The notes under the pieces are model-generated. The model saw nothing but the letters and a program-made list of their open reading frames with translations, had not been told where the DNA came from and searched no databases. A DNA stretch of 23,185 nt from Escherichia coli (GTDB lineage: Bacteria; Pseudomonadota; Gammaproteobacteria; Enterobacterales; Enterobacteriaceae), in the NCBI GenBank assembly GCA_022664555.1, contig GCA_022664555.1_4839.1; one strand, 5' to 3'. Below are positions 15,486 to 19,577 of the stretch, piece by piece. The position numbers and the translations under genes are program-made. The number at the start of each line of letters is the position of its first letter. Positions within the stretch are counted from its first letter, which is position 1.

Positions 15486-16142
15486 TTATTTCTTGAATAA
15501 ACGAAGGAACTTCATCATGTTTTCCATGAAAGTCGGCTTCTTGACCTTTTGTTTTACCGGAGCGCCCTGATCATTCAGAACACGACTGACCGGAGGAGTA
15601 GGTGGTGTCGGCGCTTTCGTTTCACAGGCCGGAACGATGTTCACGTCATGATGAGAAGACTCAGATGTAGTGTTAACAACATTGTTCTCCTGGACGACAG
15701 GCTTGACGAGATTCTTTTCGTACTCACGCGCCATGGCCTGATACATCAGATTCAAATCCACCAGATCAACAGACTTGACCTTGCGACGACGCCAATTGGC
15801 GCTTTCTTCGCCATAGAAATCATATCCGTTTCTGATCAGCCAGTGTACGGCTTGTTCAAAAGAACCGAAGACCATAAGCGGAGCGCCCTGGCCTTTCTCA
15901 GATTGTTCCAGGCTACTATAACCCATCAATACAACCTGGCCTTTGATACTCAAATCAAACGTCATACCAAGGTTCGGGATGTTTTTATCGCGGCGGAAGA
16001 ACCCGCCATCACGGTAGACGTAAACAGGCGAAAGGAACTCATTCAGAGTACGCTTGACACCCTTGTATTGGAAGAGTCTGACAATTGGAGGGGTGTCATG
16101 GGAAATCACTTCGTTCAATTCCCAGATAGAAACATTACGCAT
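15486..16142 (-). CDS. hypothetical protein (218 aa)
   Basis: Track ORF; ATG at 16142 with GAGGAT SD 6 nt upstream. Proline-rich linker (KAPTPPTPPV) and basic C-terminus. Confidence 0.6.
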   Translation of the reverse strand: MRNVSIWELNEVISHDTPPIVRLFQYKGVKRTLNEFLSPVYVYRDGGFFRRDKNIPNLGMTFDLSIKGQVVLMGYSSLEQSEKGQGAPLMVFGSFEQAVHWLIRNGYDFYGEESANWRRRKVKSVDLVDLNLMYQAMAREYEKNLVKPVVQENNVVNTTSESSHHDVNIVPACETKAPTPPTPPVSRVLNDQGAPVKQKVKKPTFMENMMKFLRLFKK

Positions 16143-16166
16143 TGGTGTATCCTCAAATCTATGATA

Positions 16167-16195
16167 GGGGGTTAACGGTTAAATTTTAAACCCCC
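16167..16195. other. GC-clamped hairpin in the 5' leader of CDS 15486..16142
   Basis: GGGGGTT...AACCCCC 7-bp stem with a 15-nt AT-rich loop, followed on the plus strand by TTTGTAT. Confidence 0.35.
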
Positions 16196-16261
16196 TTTGT
16201 ATCATTGAACAAACTACGATAAAGGAGGACATGCTTGGGTCGATAAGAAGATAATAAGACA

Positions 16262-16295
16262 GGGATAAAAAGAAAGCCGGATAGGATATCCGGCT
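16262..16295 (-). terminator. intrinsic terminator at the downstream (minus-strand) end of the tRNA region
   Basis: AGCCGGATA-GGA-TATCCGGCT perfect 9-bp stem (16275-16295) followed on the minus strand by TTCTTTTTATCCC (plus 16262-16274). Confidence 0.7.
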
Positions 16296-16352
16296 ATACC
16301 ACATCGATGGGATGGGTTGAAAGACTACACGCTTGCACTGGTACTACCCTAT

Positions 16353-16380
16353 GGGAGAGCGCGTCAGGAGTCGAACCTGA
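16353..16380 (-). pseudogene. tRNA 3'-end fragment (T-arm plus acceptor 3' strand), no anticodon arm found
   Basis: Minus strand reads TCAGG-TTCGACT-CCTGA-CGCGCTC-T-CCC: a perfect 5-bp T-stem with canonical T-loop, then a 7-nt acceptor-like strand. I could not find a matching 5' acceptor, D-arm or anticodon arm within tRNA distance. Confidence 0.35.
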
Positions 16381-16512
16381 AGTCGTCGACGTAGAGAAAG
16401 CTATTTGCATTTCACTATCCTCGCCGCGATTTTCTTAACTTCCTAAACACCCCGATTACGAGAGAGTCGACATGCACATCTTCTAACTCTTCAGGAAGTC
16501 ACGCCCGTAATT

Positions 16513-16601
16513 TGGCGGAAGGTGAAGGATTCGAACCTTCGGGGGCTAAAAGCCCCACTCGATTAGCAATCGAGTCCCTTAAACCTCTCGGGCAACCTTC
16601 C
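16513..16601 (-). tRNA. tRNA-Ser (anticodon GCU), class II with long variable arm, CCA encoded
   Basis: Reverse complement folds by hand into a cloverleaf: acceptor GGAAGGT/ACCTTCC (7 bp perfect), anticodon stem CTCGA/TCGAG with loop TTGCTAA, variable arm GGGGC-TTTTA-GCCCC, T-arm GAAGG-TTCGAAT-CCTTC, discriminator G, CCA. Confidence 0.9.
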
Positions 16602-16821
16602 AATTTGGACGGGCTTCGCACCCGATTGAGCATTTGATCTACCGTAGCCCAACTCCCCGCGCTTCTCAGCGCCGATTGGTTAACTGGCGACCAGTGCCTT
16701 CTGGTTCGATCTCCTAGAAGTTTACATGCTTTGCTGCCGACCATTTCTGGTAGTTAGGGCATCGTTTCCGATGTGGAGTCACCCCATTTTATACACAGCT
16801 GGCTGCAATGCTTACTGTGTT

Positions 16822-16898
16822 TGGTGATCCTGGTTGGATTTGAACCAACGACCAATGAATTATGAGTTCACTGCTCTAACCGACTGAGCTACAGGACC
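16822..16898 (-). tRNA. tRNA with CAU anticodon (elongator Met, or Ile2 if lysidine-modified), CCA encoded
   Basis: Reverse complement: acceptor GGTCCTG/CAGGATC, D-arm GCTC-AGTCGGTTA-GAGC, anticodon stem GTGAA/TTCAT with loop CTCATAA, T-arm GTTGG-TTCAAAT-CCAAC, discriminator A, CCA. G1-C72 pair argues against an initiator. Confidence 0.88.
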
Positions 16899-17802
16899 AA
16901 ATTATTGTGTGACCAACCAAGGACTGTCAACCCTTTATCCCGTTTGTGCATGATCAGTTCATGCAGGCCTCTTTGTGCTGCCTCACGGCATGCGCTTCTG
17001 TTGGTCATTGGCTTACACTGTGGCCTCACAACAGGCGTTTATTTTTCCAGGGCTTTCCACTTGCAAGTCTTGACCATACAGGGATACGGGCTTACAAGAT
17101 CGGGTTGGACACAACTTTGATGGCTCTGGTATTAAAGATCCCGCGTCACCCATAGACATGGTTTATAAATCCAGAGCCATCAAAGTTGCAACCAATGTCG
17201 CAACTCGCAGCTTCCATGCAGAAGAAACTTGTCCTCTAACGCTCGGACCAAACGAGGCTGGCTGGTTGATTCAGAGCCGCTGGTTGCTCCAGCAAGCATG
17301 GGTTGATAGCCCGGCAACATAGAATCACCCAAAGTTGAAGAACACTCAGTGGTACAAGCCAGGGATACCAATTTCAGGTCCTTTGCGAGTTCTTTAAATG
17401 CTCTTCATTTTGTGAACTTGAGAATACTACGCCTGTCTCGGGTTTCCCCTTAGTTCGGCCTCCCAGTCCTCGCCGCGCCGGGTAGCTAACCCTGATGGCT
17501 CGTCTGCTACTGAGTTCTTCTTGGTGCCCACCAGTGTCCGGAATGTGTAGGCATCGCAATCTGCAAGGCATGGTCTATTTCACCCAATGCTCTCTCAAGT
17601 TCACAAATCGAAGTGCCCTGACTCAACAGTATAGCCCAATATGCTGTTATCGTCCACCGGATTGGCCACCCACTTCGTAGATCAACCTTTGGGTTTAAGA
17701 TAAATTGTCAAGGCACTTCGATTTGTGTGCCCTTCACCTGCCAGGGATCAGGGCTGATGGCAAGACTTCGCTCACATCTTTCAAGATACTCGTGAGAATA
17801 TC

Positions 17803-17830
17803 CTCAAAGATGTGGGGCCGTTTTTAGGAG
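17803..17830 (-). pseudogene. tRNA 3'-end fragment (T-arm + acceptor 3' strand + CCA), no anticodon arm found
   Basis: Minus strand reads TTGGG-TTCGACT-CCTAA-AAACGGC-C-CCA, the same layout as the two intact tRNAs. No complementary 5' acceptor (GCCGTTT-like) or anticodon stem-loop could be found 60-100 nt upstream. Confidence 0.35.
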
Positions 17831-18803
17831 TCGAACCCAAATGCTTGGCCAGCGCTGACCTTACATCCCATCTGACTTAGGCAACCCACTCCCAGCCCCA
17901 CAACACTCACTACGGTTAAGATTATTGCGTATGTTGTATGGTCTTGCTGGTCACAACTGAAAGGGCACTTAACAGAAGATAGGTCTGATTGCCTCGGATG
18001 ATTTCTCAGTAGCCTAAATGCCCTTACATGTTGTGTGCCCATTATTAATCACAGCGGGCCACTGCGCCGAATTTGGTGATGAGGAATCGGAAGACCTCAC
18101 TGACTTATAGGCTGTTACGCCGCCATCAGAACTTCGGAATCATTAGCAGTTATTTGCTTGGTCAGTTTCTAAAAACCCGCAAAGTCACGCACAACGAAAA
18201 CGAAAACCTGTTTGAGCACAAGACACCATGTCCTGGGTTCACATCGAAGTGTTTGTCTAATGCCCAAACAGCTTTTCGCTTCAGTGGGTTAACTATACTT
18301 TGTAACCCGTTATTGATAAAACCTTTTATTTTTGTTGGCGAGGGTATCACCATCGATTTACCGGAACTTACGCATCCGGCCTCGCCTGTTGGTGATCCTT
18401 CGAATCCGGGAAGATCAGTAGGAACTATGAATCAAGTTAATTCAACCAACAGGAACCTTGTTGCCCTTTGACGCAACATTATGAACCCTCTATGGAAGAC
18501 TCATAATGTTGTGGCGTGATGGAGATTAGCGCCCCCGACCTCCCCTTATACGTTGGTGTCGACTTGCCAACAGGGTGCTCTCTGATTCTGAGCTAATCAC
18601 GCTACAACAGGGAGTTTCGTTCTCCGACGGTCAGTGCGTCCACCGACACCAGCGAGGTTGATATTACGCCTCTATTCGTCACGGTGCCCTGAGACTGGGC
18701 TTTCCTGGTTTCGGGTTCCAGCCCTACTCCCACCGCGCTATTCGCCTCGTGTTTAATACTTTACTACAGCCCAGCTAATTTGAAAAGTCCTCTCCTCTTT
18801 GAG

Positions 18804-18950
18804 CTACACTGCCCACAGCAGTGCGGGCGAACCTTCGCACAAAACCGGATGCGCCGAAGTGGGCGACTGTTTACCGGACTGATCGGGTAGACCCAGGAGA
18901 GTAAAGGTAATCCCGATCAGGAGGATGAGGAGTAACATCATGTAAAACAT
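18804..18950 (-). CDS. small membrane protein (48 aa)
   Basis: Hand-translated ORF below the track cutoff: MFYMMLLLILLIGITFTLLGLPDQSGKQSPTSAHPVLCEGSPALLWAV. ATG at 18950-18948 with a strong GGAAGGGAGGGAA SD 4 nt upstream; TAG at 18806-18804. One N-terminal TM helix. Confidence 0.45.
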   Translation of the reverse strand: MFYMMLLLILLIGITFTLLGLPDQSGKQSPTSAHPVLCEGSPALLWAV

Positions 18951-19007: not shown

Positions 19008-19577
19008 TTATTTTAACACTTCTAACTTCACAATACGACGCAGAAGGTAAACATATTCGCCAGCAGCTTCATGCGTCATATAATGGGTAGAAGGTGTGGA
19101 ATGAGTGTTCTGGGTTTCTTTTAATCCAACACGTTCTGCCCAACCATTAATAGAGTTCCCATAGAAACCGATAATCGCACCAAAATAAATGCGCCCGCTT
19201 TCTGGCTCTAAAACATAGTTGACAGTGAAGCAAATGTCAGAACGAATAGACTCCAGTTTCATACCAACACGACCTTCAGAGAATTCGTTACGAACATATA
19301 AATGACGGAAGCGATCGCGCCGTGCTTGTGATGATTCTTCCAATTCTTGTCGAAGTGAAGAAGTTATGTCAATATTAAATGAAAATGTTGGATTTCGTAA
19401 ATCAGAACGAGCCAACTCTAAGGCAGATTCAATAACGCGGCGGAAATTGATACTTTTACCTGTCAGGCGTTTCACTTCATCGGTGATTGTTTCAAAAGGG
19501 ATTTTCGTGGCGCGTTCCCCTTCGTATTTTGCTAACAAAGGAATAATGTGTTTCATGATTGCTGTGTTAATGTGCAT
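19008..19577 (-). CDS. hypothetical protein in an AT-rich islet (189 aa)
   Basis: Track ORF; ATG at 19577 with GAGG SD about 7 nt upstream. Visibly lower GC and different codon choice from the surrounding genes. No motif I can assign (no GIY-YIG, HNH, Walker or HAD signature). Confidence 0.6.
   Translation of the reverse strand: MHINTAIMKHIIPLLAKYEGERATKIPFETITDEVKRLTGKSINFRRVIESALELARSDLRNPTFSFNIDITSSLRQELEESSQARRDRFRHLYVRNEFSEGRVGMKLESIRSDICFTVNYVLEPESGRIYFGAIIGFYGNSINGWAERVGLKETQNTHSTPSTHYMTHEAAGEYVYLLRRIVKLEVLK

Follow-up and report, generated by a model that had tools for sequence, protein, structure and literature searches.

What fills 2.6 kb of a phage genome in which no protein gene can be made out? 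The question is raised by positions 16143-18803 (the interval) of a 23,185-nucleotide stretch of DNA filed under Escherichia coli (GenBank assembly GCA_022664555.1, contig GCA_022664555.1_4839.1). 'The window' denotes this whole stretch, to which coordinates refer unless another record is named. We find that the interval is an island of RNA genes on the minus strand and not decayed coding DNA. Its main feature, missed by a first-pass annotation made from the nucleotide sequence alone, is a gene at 17811-18271 that resembles that of transfer-messenger RNA (tmRNA) and bears a conserved tag reading frame. Comparison across phages strongly supports this unannotated and widely distributed tag template as the putative centrepiece of the island. 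Trans-translation is the main bacterial pathway of ribosome rescue and quality control, and affects phage growth. A conserved phage tag template would mean that enterobacterial phages actively rewrite this pathway, and its carriers include the model phage P1, lambdoid prophages and Kuttervirus phages that are candidates for therapy.

A conserved interval without protein genes

The best nucleotide matches of the interval, at 94-96% identity, are Enterobacter phage fGh-Ecl02, E. coli phage RPN242 and Salmonella phage vB_CECAV_050, and on its sequence we assign the source of the window to an Ackermannviridae phage of Kuttervirus/Agtrevirus-like type. The interval is conserved in 330-472 phage records, and in all the best-matching relatives it is flanked on one side by a conserved 218-aa gene and on the other by a small 48-aa gene ahead of the baseplate-wedge cluster. 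The first-pass annotation had seen no credible open reading frame (ORF) here, and we concur: the longest is of 132 aa. When compared with seven relatives, every ORF of at least 40 aa is disrupted by frameshifting indels and/or internal stops, with substitutions spread evenly over the codon positions, whereas the flanking genes 15486-16142 and 19008-19577 show in the same comparison the third-position excess expected of coding DNA. A six-frame Pfam scan of the interval gave zero matches, and neither it nor the ORF comparison revealed a fragmented protein gene running across the interval. The composition is balanced, as had been noted, with a GC content of 0.45-0.52. Over the collected loci, identity reaches 96-97% at 18450-18650 and 17850-17900, against 87-91% in the neighbouring protein-coding DNA; because parts of it thus outdo the adjacent protein genes in conservation, we regard the interval as functional. 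The RNAs and promoters described below are all on the minus strand.

The tag reading frame and its leader

The tag frame was first exposed by aligning copies from unrelated phages and reading the minus strand by eye, and ARAGORN recovers it as well. In the window it occupies 18147-18115 and reads GCU AAU GAU UCC GAA GUU CUG AUG GCG GCG UAA, that is, ANDSEVLMAA followed by a stop. These 10 codons lack a start codon and are preceded, eight codons upstream, by an in-frame UAG. As in a tmRNA tag, the frame opens with a GCN resume codon and closes with a hydrophobic, AA-type end and a stop; the tag of E. coli tmRNA is ANDENYALAA. Other phages have GCA AAC GAU GAU GUU GUU CUG AUG GCG GCG UAA UAG, or ANDDVVLMAA with two stops.

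Two exact-pattern scans of IMG/VR plus GenBank, RefSeq and PLSDB-independent collections yielded 123 frame-bearing loci, with 27 nucleotide variants that specify 14 peptides. All the frames are exactly 33 nt and all the peptides 10 residues long, and every variant starts with AN(D/E) and finishes with (A/V)A. Codons 1, 2 and 10 vary at the third base only, while codons 4-6 are free in sequence and fixed in length. Many of the differences between variants are purely synonymous, with three to four synonymous versions for several peptides. The variable sites at codon positions 1, 2 and 3 number 5, 6 and 10, such that all ten third positions vary. The ratio of nonsynonymous to synonymous polymorphism (pN/pS) is 0.52 in the tag frame and 1.55 and 1.00 when the frame is shifted, a modest signal. 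Further, in an alignment of 90 loci (A4), single-nucleotide indels are present in the leader just upstream and there are zero inside the frame. Given the fixed 33-nt length, the variability of third positions and a pN/pS that is low in the tag frame only, the frame is constrained both at the level of codons and in length, which is the pattern of a translated template.

The leader 5' of the resume codon (18148-18207; GUUUUCG ... GCGUGACUUUGCGGG UUUUUAGAAACUGACCA ... AUAACU) was delineated from the same alignment. The GCN codon is preceded in all aligned loci by AUAACU, AUAAAU, AUAUCU or AUAAUC, with an invariant U at -5 and A at -4, which we take to be the equivalents of U85 and A86, conserved in E. 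coli tmRNA. With a lowered threshold ARAGORN labels this site as 'resume consensus', and the Rfam tmRNA_permuted model aligns there too.

Covarying structure around the frame

The core 3' of the frame was evaluated for covariation over the 90 loci of A4, with the structure drawn from the window sequence and comprising 21 pairs in five helices. The fraction of paired cells is 92.7%, compared with 81.0% in shuffles, none of 500 of which attains the observed value, and sliding the partners by 1-3 columns lowers pairing to 30-47%. Double, compensatory changes are seen in 16 of the 21 tested pairs. The core helices covary over at least five phage lineages.

The first two of these helices form an analogue of tmRNA helix 5 (18100-18129), in which the frame's 3' end and the sequence beyond it form an outer and an inner stem, leaving the UAA stop in the hairpin loop, the place that it has in tmRNA. 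The outer stem is 100% paired, with CUGA/UCAG alternating with CUGG/CCAG (44:43 at one pair). Helices 3 and 4 constitute an H-type pseudoknot (18067-18099), wherein the loop CCGA of a hairpin UGAGG/CCUCA pairs with a downstream UCGG; they are 99.3% and 98.3% paired, and the loop pairing occurs as CCGA/UCGG, CCAG/CUGG and CCAA/UUGG. This downstream pseudoknot is the one pseudoknot around the frame with covariation, the other positions that hold pseudoknots in tmRNA being taken by hairpins or modules. The fifth helix is the stem of a hairpin at 18037-18059, with compensatory changes in all 4 of its pairs and a nearly invariant loop, G(C/G)UGUGAUUAAUAAU, which appears as GUGUGAUUAAUAA in A4.

Two further structures frame this core. 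At the 5' end of the tmRNA-like RNA, a stem-loop (18208-18271; CUGUUUGGGCA ... UGCUCAAACAG; fold z = -4.2) has an inner helix that covaries between GGGCA/UGCUC and GAGUCCU/AGGACUC; the helix is continuous over 15 bp in Serratia phage Kevin and reads CCUGA/UCAGG in Erwinia phage Bue1. On the 3' side is a long-helix module, element B (17952-18035; CACAAC-A-UGUAAGGGCA, a 51-nt apical domain, and UGCCCUUUCAGUUGUG; fold z = -3.6), with a compensatory change in phage phiWec188 (GGGCA/UGCCC versus GAACA/UGUUC) and an apical part that is swapped between lineages. This element acts like a mobile unit of its own, a spacer or processing module in phage tRNA operons. Standalone 86-nt copies of the long-helix module (ACAACAGGUAAGRGCA ... 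UGCYCUUUCCGUUGU) are also found directly 3' of tRNA-Thr in phiWec188 and P1-type plasmids; the copies lie at 2001-2086 of locus L008 (phiWec188), 278-364 of L007 (Klebsiella phage 1611E-K2-1) and from about 2098 onward in L162.

A self-contained 3' tRNA-like domain

The 3' end of the gene is a tRNA-like domain (17811-17902; fold z = -3.3), located also by a scan for T-arms. It is closed by a perfect 10-bp helix between UGUGGGGCUG (17902-17893) and CGGCCCCACA (17820-17811). The closest relative, fGh-Ecl02, has two wobble pairs in this helix, and a U-to-C change therefore makes the helix of the window stronger than its counterpart. Within the domain are an internal hairpin, GGUCA-GCGC-UGGCC, and a T-arm, UUGGG-UUCGACU-CCUAA (17840-17824), followed by an alternative acceptor register, AAACGGC-C-CCA (17823-17813). 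The 3' block with the T-arm (UUGGG-UUCGACU-CCYWA) is 93-99% identical in 199 records from Kuttervirus, Agtrevirus and Taipeivirus. A T-arm near the 3' acceptor strand is as in tmRNA; in contrast, the 5' and 3' ends do not enclose the mRNA-like domain, as the 3' domain closes locally.

A standard topology was nevertheless proposed by ARAGORN at its lowered threshold (-ps80), which reports a tmRNA at 17813-18272 with the tag ANDSEVLMAA and pairs GCUGUUU (18272-18266), 125 nt upstream of the frame, with AAACGGC-N-CCA. The conservation of the CCA while the 'discriminator' varies once favoured this model. We disfavour it because GCUGUUU forms the foot of a local hairpin that covaries, phage Kevin keeps GCUGUUU in the absence of AAACGGC, and forcing the distal pairing costs 5.7 kcal/mol; further, chance alone could well supply a 7-nt complement within about 250 nt, and a P2-like duplex is not evident. 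We also rejected GGGGCUG/CGGCCCC as a canonical acceptor, despite its resemblance to the 5' end of E. coli tmRNA, as its 5' strand is restricted to the window, fGh-Ecl02 and G7C-type phages and it is part of the longer UGUGGGGCUG helix. The 3:70 pair of the window is U-A in the 10-bp register, G-C in the inner GGGGCUG/CGGCCCC and U·G in the ARAGORN register. The 10-bp helix reads U1-A72...G-C, and a CCA is available only in the ARAGORN register (AAACGGC-C-CCA). In fGh-Ecl02 the inner register, GGGGCUG/CGGCUCC-A, has G3·U70 and A73, followed by CAU and not CCA.

Other families have, 3' of the tag module, a long helix and next to it a homologous tRNA-like domain, module Z, of which we collected 45 distinct variants. 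Its order is UGUGGUG, AA, a D-type hairpin, a variable insert, a T-hairpin, CACCACA and A, and where its 3' strand carries single changes, wobble pairs with the local 5' strand are still formed. The Rfam tmRNA model RF00023 aligns to module Z of locus L045 over the tRNA-like domain only (20.2 bits, E = 4.7e-6, below the gathering score). Candidates for an upstream 5' acceptor strand in the siphophage and lambdoid versions were discarded, since they fall inside the spacer of a near-consensus promoter or lack a compensatory pattern; in the siphophages that promoter lies about 57 nt upstream of the resume codon and therefore leaves no room for an upstream acceptor. The conserved architecture accordingly comprises a tag template, helices and a self-contained tRNA-like domain, an arrangement that is neither a standard nor a circularly permuted tmRNA.

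About 20 nt upstream of the tmRNA-like gene a consensus scan found a sigma-70-like promoter, TTATCA-16-TATAGT (18292-18319), and the arrangement with TATAGT is conserved in phages Kevin and Bue1. A 19-bp trailer hairpin (17773-17814; inverted repeat I4) starts at the 3' end of the tRNA-like domain and, having no U-run, is a candidate processing or protective structure.

Distribution across unrelated phages

The segment at about 17883-18201 matches unrelated phages in unannotated DNA beside their tRNAs. These are Sf11-type siphophages, G7C-type podophages (PGN829.1 and CU10EC), the Phapecoctavirus phiWec188 and Klebsiella phage 1611E-K2-1, and the tag module is 73-88% identical among such families. 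The carriers within Ackermannviridae span five genera, including those of Serratia phage Kevin (ANDNAFLMAA) and Erwinia phage Bue1 (ANDNEFKVAA). Lambdoid versions are found in phage HK633 and in prophages of 147 of 5426 complete E. coli genomes, in each case within an unannotated gap of about 1 kb between the antiterminator Q/pR' and the holin; the bearers include genomes of 5.6-5.8 Mb, typical of Shiga-toxin-producing strains. Phage P1 and 438 P1-type plasmids from complete E. coli genomes carry the element with the tag ANDDLMMVAA, placed between the ban promoter/'dicF-like region' and tRNA-Asn/Thr. Lying downstream of the C1-controlled ban promoters, the P1 element would therefore fall under the control of the prophage repressor. 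In the P1 record (L163, AF234172) the annotated 'dicF-like region' at 1115-1216 ends in a terminator directly before the tmRNA-like leader. Further carriers are many viral contigs of 40-50 kb and some of 111 kb that lack a cultured relative; the latter, from IMG/VR, were considered as T5-like, an assignment that we dropped as they have no close isolate.

Annotation of the element is absent from all carrier records, including the P1 entry with its 535 features and those annotated by PGAP. Standard tools overlook it, and automated pipelines place spurious 'hypothetical proteins' in its stead. The G7C-type phages have a comparable ORF-free region of about 2 kb (961-2856 of L010, PGN829.1; 914-2987 of L009, CU10EC), which contains the tag module and several tRNA-like RNAs with an encoded CCA that default ARAGORN leaves uncalled, for example, UCCGGUG...CGCCGGA-A-CCA and UAUCAGU...ACUGAUA-A-CCA. 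A stem motif, CGCAAUNAUNAUGUAGGGGUAUGUA, occurs on the minus strand in the tRNA regions of L006 (Sf11; about 2290-2330) and L010 (about 1310-1345), and many IMG/VR loci have it 3' of module Z; no copy was seen in the window.

Relationship to known tmRNAs

The detectors give faint signals at the expected places. The window has a sub-threshold match to Rfam tmRNA_permuted that ends exactly at the stop codon of the tag (24.1 bits versus 47 required). Across the window and other phages the best sub-threshold scores are 24.1 to 31.2 bits relative to the gathering score of 47, and weak matches of tmRNA_permuted or beta_tmRNA to the resume/tag/helix 5 region recur in the window and five other phages (E = 0.0027 to 0.2). 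Base pairing between the phage core and E. coli ssrA was explored and set aside, as it did not rise above shuffled controls.

With SsrA (RF00023) the phage element shares a GCN resume codon without a start, a tag AN(D/E)xxxx(L/M/A/V)(A/V)A close to ANDENYALAA, U and A at -5 and -4, a stop in a helix-5-like loop with a pseudoknot directly downstream, a UUCGACU T-loop near the 3' end and a length of about 460 nt. It differs in closing locally 3' of the template without G3·U70, and in having one supported pseudoknot and a middle made of swappable hairpin or tRNA-like modules. The permuted, two-piece tmRNAs of alpha- and beta-proteobacteria and cyanobacteria (RF04321, RF01850) are the best-matching Rfam families for the resume/tag/helix 5 region. 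They offer a precedent for rearranged tRNA-like and mRNA-like parts that tRNA enzymes process into separate pieces (PMC11915505). However, the order in permuted genes is T-arm, 3' acceptor-CCA, linker, 5' acceptor, pseudoknot 1 (PK1) and tag, whereas that in the window is tag, helices, 5' acceptor-like strand, T-arm and 3' strand, which is not a circular permutation. The frame comes first, the tRNA domain is missing upstream of it in the Rfam alignment, and an 18-nt hairpin tip stands in the window where the permuted model would place a 100-nt tRNA domain.

Phage tmRNAs are known from Bxz1-type mycobacteriophages and Bacillus phage G, with a tRNA-like-domain-only version in mycobacteriophage DS6A (PMC4131195, PMC11915505). 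The element described here is likewise phage-borne, and DS6A, too, carries one half of a tmRNA (PMC4131195); in contrast to it, the known versions were found by standard detectors and, DS6A excepted, have the canonical architecture. A 2025 tmRNA database lists 79 phage sequences from a pipeline that demands a complete tRNA-like domain with CCA (PMC11915505), a requirement that sets them apart from the enterobacterial elements, which lack one. The searched full-text literature contains no description that we could find of a tmRNA-like element in these phages, though a record outside the searched texts is possible. A different parallel is with the stable RNAs of the T4 tRNA region (species 1 and 2, RNA C and D), which lie beside phage tRNAs, are probably co-transcribed with them and are excised by tRNA-processing enzymes; these are likewise small, stable and set among phage tRNAs and differ in carrying no tag frame.

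A proposed tag template for a trans-translation-like process and its rivals

By its sequence, 17811-18271 carries the hallmarks of the mRNA-like half of a tmRNA together with a tRNA-like domain with a T-arm. We accordingly favour, with a probability of roughly 0.6, the interpretation that the interval is an RNA-gene island with a tmRNA-like gene whose tag template is translated by a route akin to trans-translation. The island would be read from two or three sigma-70-like promoters (at about 18784, 18319 and 16930) and end at the terminator 16295-16265, delivering two working tRNAs, several tRNA-shaped RNAs without an anticodon, one decayed tRNA, an RNA of about 330 nt and the product of the tmRNA-like gene. 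This last RNA would be cut from the precursor by tRNA-processing enzymes and/or RNase III, presumably where tRNA-like modules and long helices flank it. Ribosomes would then translate the tag frame in a trans-translation-like manner, probably with host SmpB, so that stalled nascent chains of host or phage receive a phage-specified tag instead of, or besides, ANDENYALAA. We word this mechanism conditionally in view of the non-canonical topology, the missing G3·U70 and the lack of a tRNA-like domain near the P1 and Kevin modules.

Several observations weigh against such an interpretation. Neither default ARAGORN nor Rfam at gathering thresholds calls a tmRNA in the window, and the overall sequence similarity of the phage core to E. 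coli ssrA does not exceed that of shuffled controls. As PK1, the leader offers just invariant or weak pairings with zero covariation. In the 3' domain, the T-arm lies outside the minimum-energy fold and is separated by 3 nt from the closing helix, and the combination of G3·U70 with A73-CCA is absent. A template followed by a self-closed domain fits the order of neither standard nor permuted tmRNA; moreover, RNase P should remove a 5' extension of an acceptor stem and would therefore separate the template from the tRNA-like domain. Close to the tag module of P1 and Kevin, no tRNA-like domain was found. Finally, the pN/pS contrast comes from one 10-codon frame and related sequences.

A tentative generalization, to which we give distinctly less credence, is that of a hitherto overlooked family of horizontally mobile phage RNAs, wired unlike any known tmRNA, in which the tag template is uncoupled from, or lies 5' of, a self-contained tRNA-like domain. 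Such RNAs could work in trans with the host tmRNA-SmpB, as a new kind of two-piece molecule left by RNase P, or by starting at the Ala codon independently of an initiator. If this holds, the products would be phage-chosen tags (ANDSEVLMAA, ANEEMYLAVA, ANDDLMMVAA and others) or free degron-like decapeptides, and host proteolysis and ribosome rescue would be re-programmed in infections by P1, lambdoid phages, Kuttervirus and others. The topology would challenge the rule that the tag template is enclosed by the tRNA-like domain.

Among the rivals to a translated template, the strongest, though in our estimation unlikely, is an untranslated decoy that mimics tmRNA. By copying the resume/tag region, helix 5 and the pseudoknot, it would titrate SmpB, S1, RNase R or a tmRNA-cleaving toxin, or rival host tmRNA for access to the ribosome, with the tRNA-like modules serving just to define RNA ends. 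Such a role would suit the topology, which is incompatible with trans-translation as known, and the persistence of the tag module in P1 and Kevin without a detectable tRNA-like domain in cis. Phages do carry partial tmRNAs, and that of DS6A is reported to inhibit tmRNA (PMC4131195). Yet we disfavour a decoy because the length of 33 nt in 27/27 variants, the variability of 10/10 third positions and a pN/pS that is low in the tag frame only fit a translated template; codons 4-6, free in sequence, never depart from the length.

Less probable still is a DNA-level element, such as a replication origin, packaging start or genome terminus, to which the RNA-like structures would be secondary. It draws on the very stable inverted repeat at 17105-17195 (z = -7.2), inside which several Kuttervirus records start or stop. 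However, it would account for about 100 nt and not for 2.6 kb, the record starts may be assembly breaks at a hairpin, and the covariation, including G·U pairs and a pseudoknot, is specific to the minus-strand RNA. The features annotated as 'repeat_region' in Kuttervirus are 21-nt items and not a direct terminal repeat that would explain the interval.

We consider it slightly more improbable again that the interval is evolutionary debris, with decaying tRNA genes and a captured, functionless ssrA fragment whose conservation reflects recent ancestry. In its favour, the Tyr, Asn and Trp tRNAs come and go between close relatives, a tRNA-like gene of the window has suffered a 51-nt deletion, lineages differ by a swap in the middle of the tmRNA-like gene, and the elements fall short of scanner thresholds. 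Recent ancestry, however, sits poorly with a module that is 73-88% identical in unrelated families, has 16 of 21 pairs with compensatory changes and keeps its frame intact in every copy, or with parts that exceed the adjacent protein genes in conservation behind conserved promoters. Lastly, a fragmented or frameshifted protein gene, or genuine micro-genes of the kind annotated automatically in some relatives (e.g., 9 'hypothetical proteins' in SeKF_19), is scarcely credible given that the ORFs of at least 40 aa are broken in relatives and without third-position bias, and that the six-frame Pfam scan is empty; the 'reverse transcriptase' and 'helicase' of phage SM5 are likewise spurious 38-aa fragments.

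Other RNAs and elements of the interval

The first-pass annotation had suggested three kinds of content for the remainder of the interval. Stable non-coding RNAs proved right in part, in that structured, covarying RNAs fill the interval, and so did decayed tRNA genes, in that at least one tRNA-like gene has the 51-nt deletion in the window; intron-like or ribozyme-like elements are not borne out. Group I/II introns, ribozymes, large RNAs of the GOLLD/ROOL type, 6S and Y RNA give zero Rfam signal even at E <= 10. The search for covariation against related phages that had been recommended there found compensatory changes in several of the RNAs of the interval.

A candidate start of the RNA cluster is a promoter-like site, TTCAAA-17-TAAAGT (18758-18784), just downstream of the 18804-18950 gene. 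It was identified from the sequence and alignment A6; its second hexamer is TATAGT or TATCAT in relatives, and it was missed by the consensus scan and is hence weak. The minimum-energy fold of the first tRNA-like RNA (18514-18602) is a four-arm cloverleaf. Its acceptor-like stem is of 7 bp (GCGUGAU/AUCACGC), and it has a D-arm (GCUC..GAGC), a T-like arm and a long arm whose 10-nt loop (CAAGUCGACA) is conserved, with neither an anticodon nor an encoded CCA. The segment is 93-97% conserved over Ackermannviridae loci, and Klebsiella phage KZag1 shows compensatory changes in the acceptor (GUGUGAU/AUCACAC) and the long arm (GCGG/CCGC versus GUUGG/CCAAC). It is followed by a hairpin with an invariant 11-bp stem in A6 (18474-18511; CAACAUUAUGA ... 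UCAUAAUGUUG) and by a second tRNA-like RNA (18385-18453; fold z = -3.2), which has a T-loop-like motif, GGAUUCGAA, and a 9-bp closing stem, CCUGUUGGU/ACCAACAGG, kept in relatives with an A-to-G change that gives U·G. The decayed gene is at 18338-18385: compared with the gene that EP75 and SeKF_19 have annotated as 'tRNA-Ala(agc)', with which it aligns in A6, it has lost the T-arm and about 51 nt.

Beyond the tmRNA-like gene lies a second structured RNA domain of about 330 nt (17400-17727), defined by the inverted repeats I2 and I3 and by RNAalifold. Helix X (17727-17707/17622-17602) and helix Y (17616-17593/17423-17400) enclose smaller hairpins, with an invariant stretch, GAGGCCGAACUAAGGGGAAACCCGAGACAGGCG, and an invariant core containing a GNRA motif. 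For eight Ackermannviridae RNAalifold yields 73 pairs, 12 of them with compensatory changes. The ORFs that overlap the domain are frameshifted in relatives, and it has no Rfam match at E <= 10.

The long inverted repeat (17105-17195; fold z = -7.2), which we assign to neither strand, has 30-nt arms (17105-17134/17166-17195) that are 83% complementary, with an 18-bp perfect core. The TATAAAT-like palindrome that had been pointed out earlier, TTTATAAAT (17162-17170), is indeed present, in or beside the loop of this repeat. The Kuttervirus records heyday, rabagast, aagejoakim and barely begin or end exactly at the equivalent of window position 17172, inside the repeat, and the left arm is inverted in the alignment of rabagast; these record ends could reflect an assembly break at the hairpin, an invertible segment or a real terminus.

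The two intact minus-strand tRNAs recognized at the outset, Ser(GCU) and Met(CAU), are the sole calls of ARAGORN and of Rfam at gathering thresholds, and no dense array of ordinary tRNAs came to light with either. The tRNA-Ser (16513-16601; 55.4 bits) and the CAU tRNA called Met (16822-16898; 73.4 bits) encode their CCA, and they alone show a cloverleaf with an anticodon loop above the RF00005 threshold; the tRNA-like RNAs at 18514-18602, 18385-18453, 17811-17902 and 16357-16425 have zero RF00005 match at E <= 10. The D-arm and T-arm of the CAU tRNA presumably resemble those of E. coli tRNA-Ile2 (ileX), and it may be a lysidine-modified Ile tRNA instead of Met. Directly upstream of it is a strong sigma-70-like promoter, TTGACA-18-AATAAT (16901-16930), with 11/12 matches. 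Relatives have Tyr, Asn and Trp tRNAs between Ser and Met, which the phage of the window is without. In Taipeivirus KZag1 (L063, OR502445.1; 1778-1992, minus strand) Rfam reports STnc100 (RF02076; 52.9 versus a threshold of 47) between the tmRNA-like gene and tRNA-Met, a match that the window lacks; STnc100 is a gammaproteobacterial small RNA.

The tRNA-derived pieces that had been described are likewise there, as T-arm-like segments at 17840, 16380 and elsewhere. That at 16380 belongs to a tRNA-like remnant (16357-16425), located by ARAGORN at lowered threshold and by the T-arm scan, which has an intact T-arm, UCAGG-UUCGACU-CCUGA, without a valid anticodon or CCA, and is conserved in EP75. 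The intrinsic terminator claimed for the end of the cluster also stands, as a hairpin with a 9-bp stem followed by a T-run, UUCUUUUUAU (16265-16295).

At the other boundary, the 48-aa ORF at 18804-18950 on the minus strand (MFYMMLLLILLIGITFTLLGLP...) behaves as a real small hydrophobic protein, with zero frameshifts in relatives and indels that are all multiples of three. Salmonella phage FrontPhageNews (MW021754.1) has a gene for an HNH homing endonuclease inside the homologous non-coding region, the match spanning 2.8 versus 1.9 kb. The entry OR844942.1, 'Enterococcus phage Efm 3-10', contains a Kuttervirus-type region at 81-84% identity and is probably mislabelled or contaminated.

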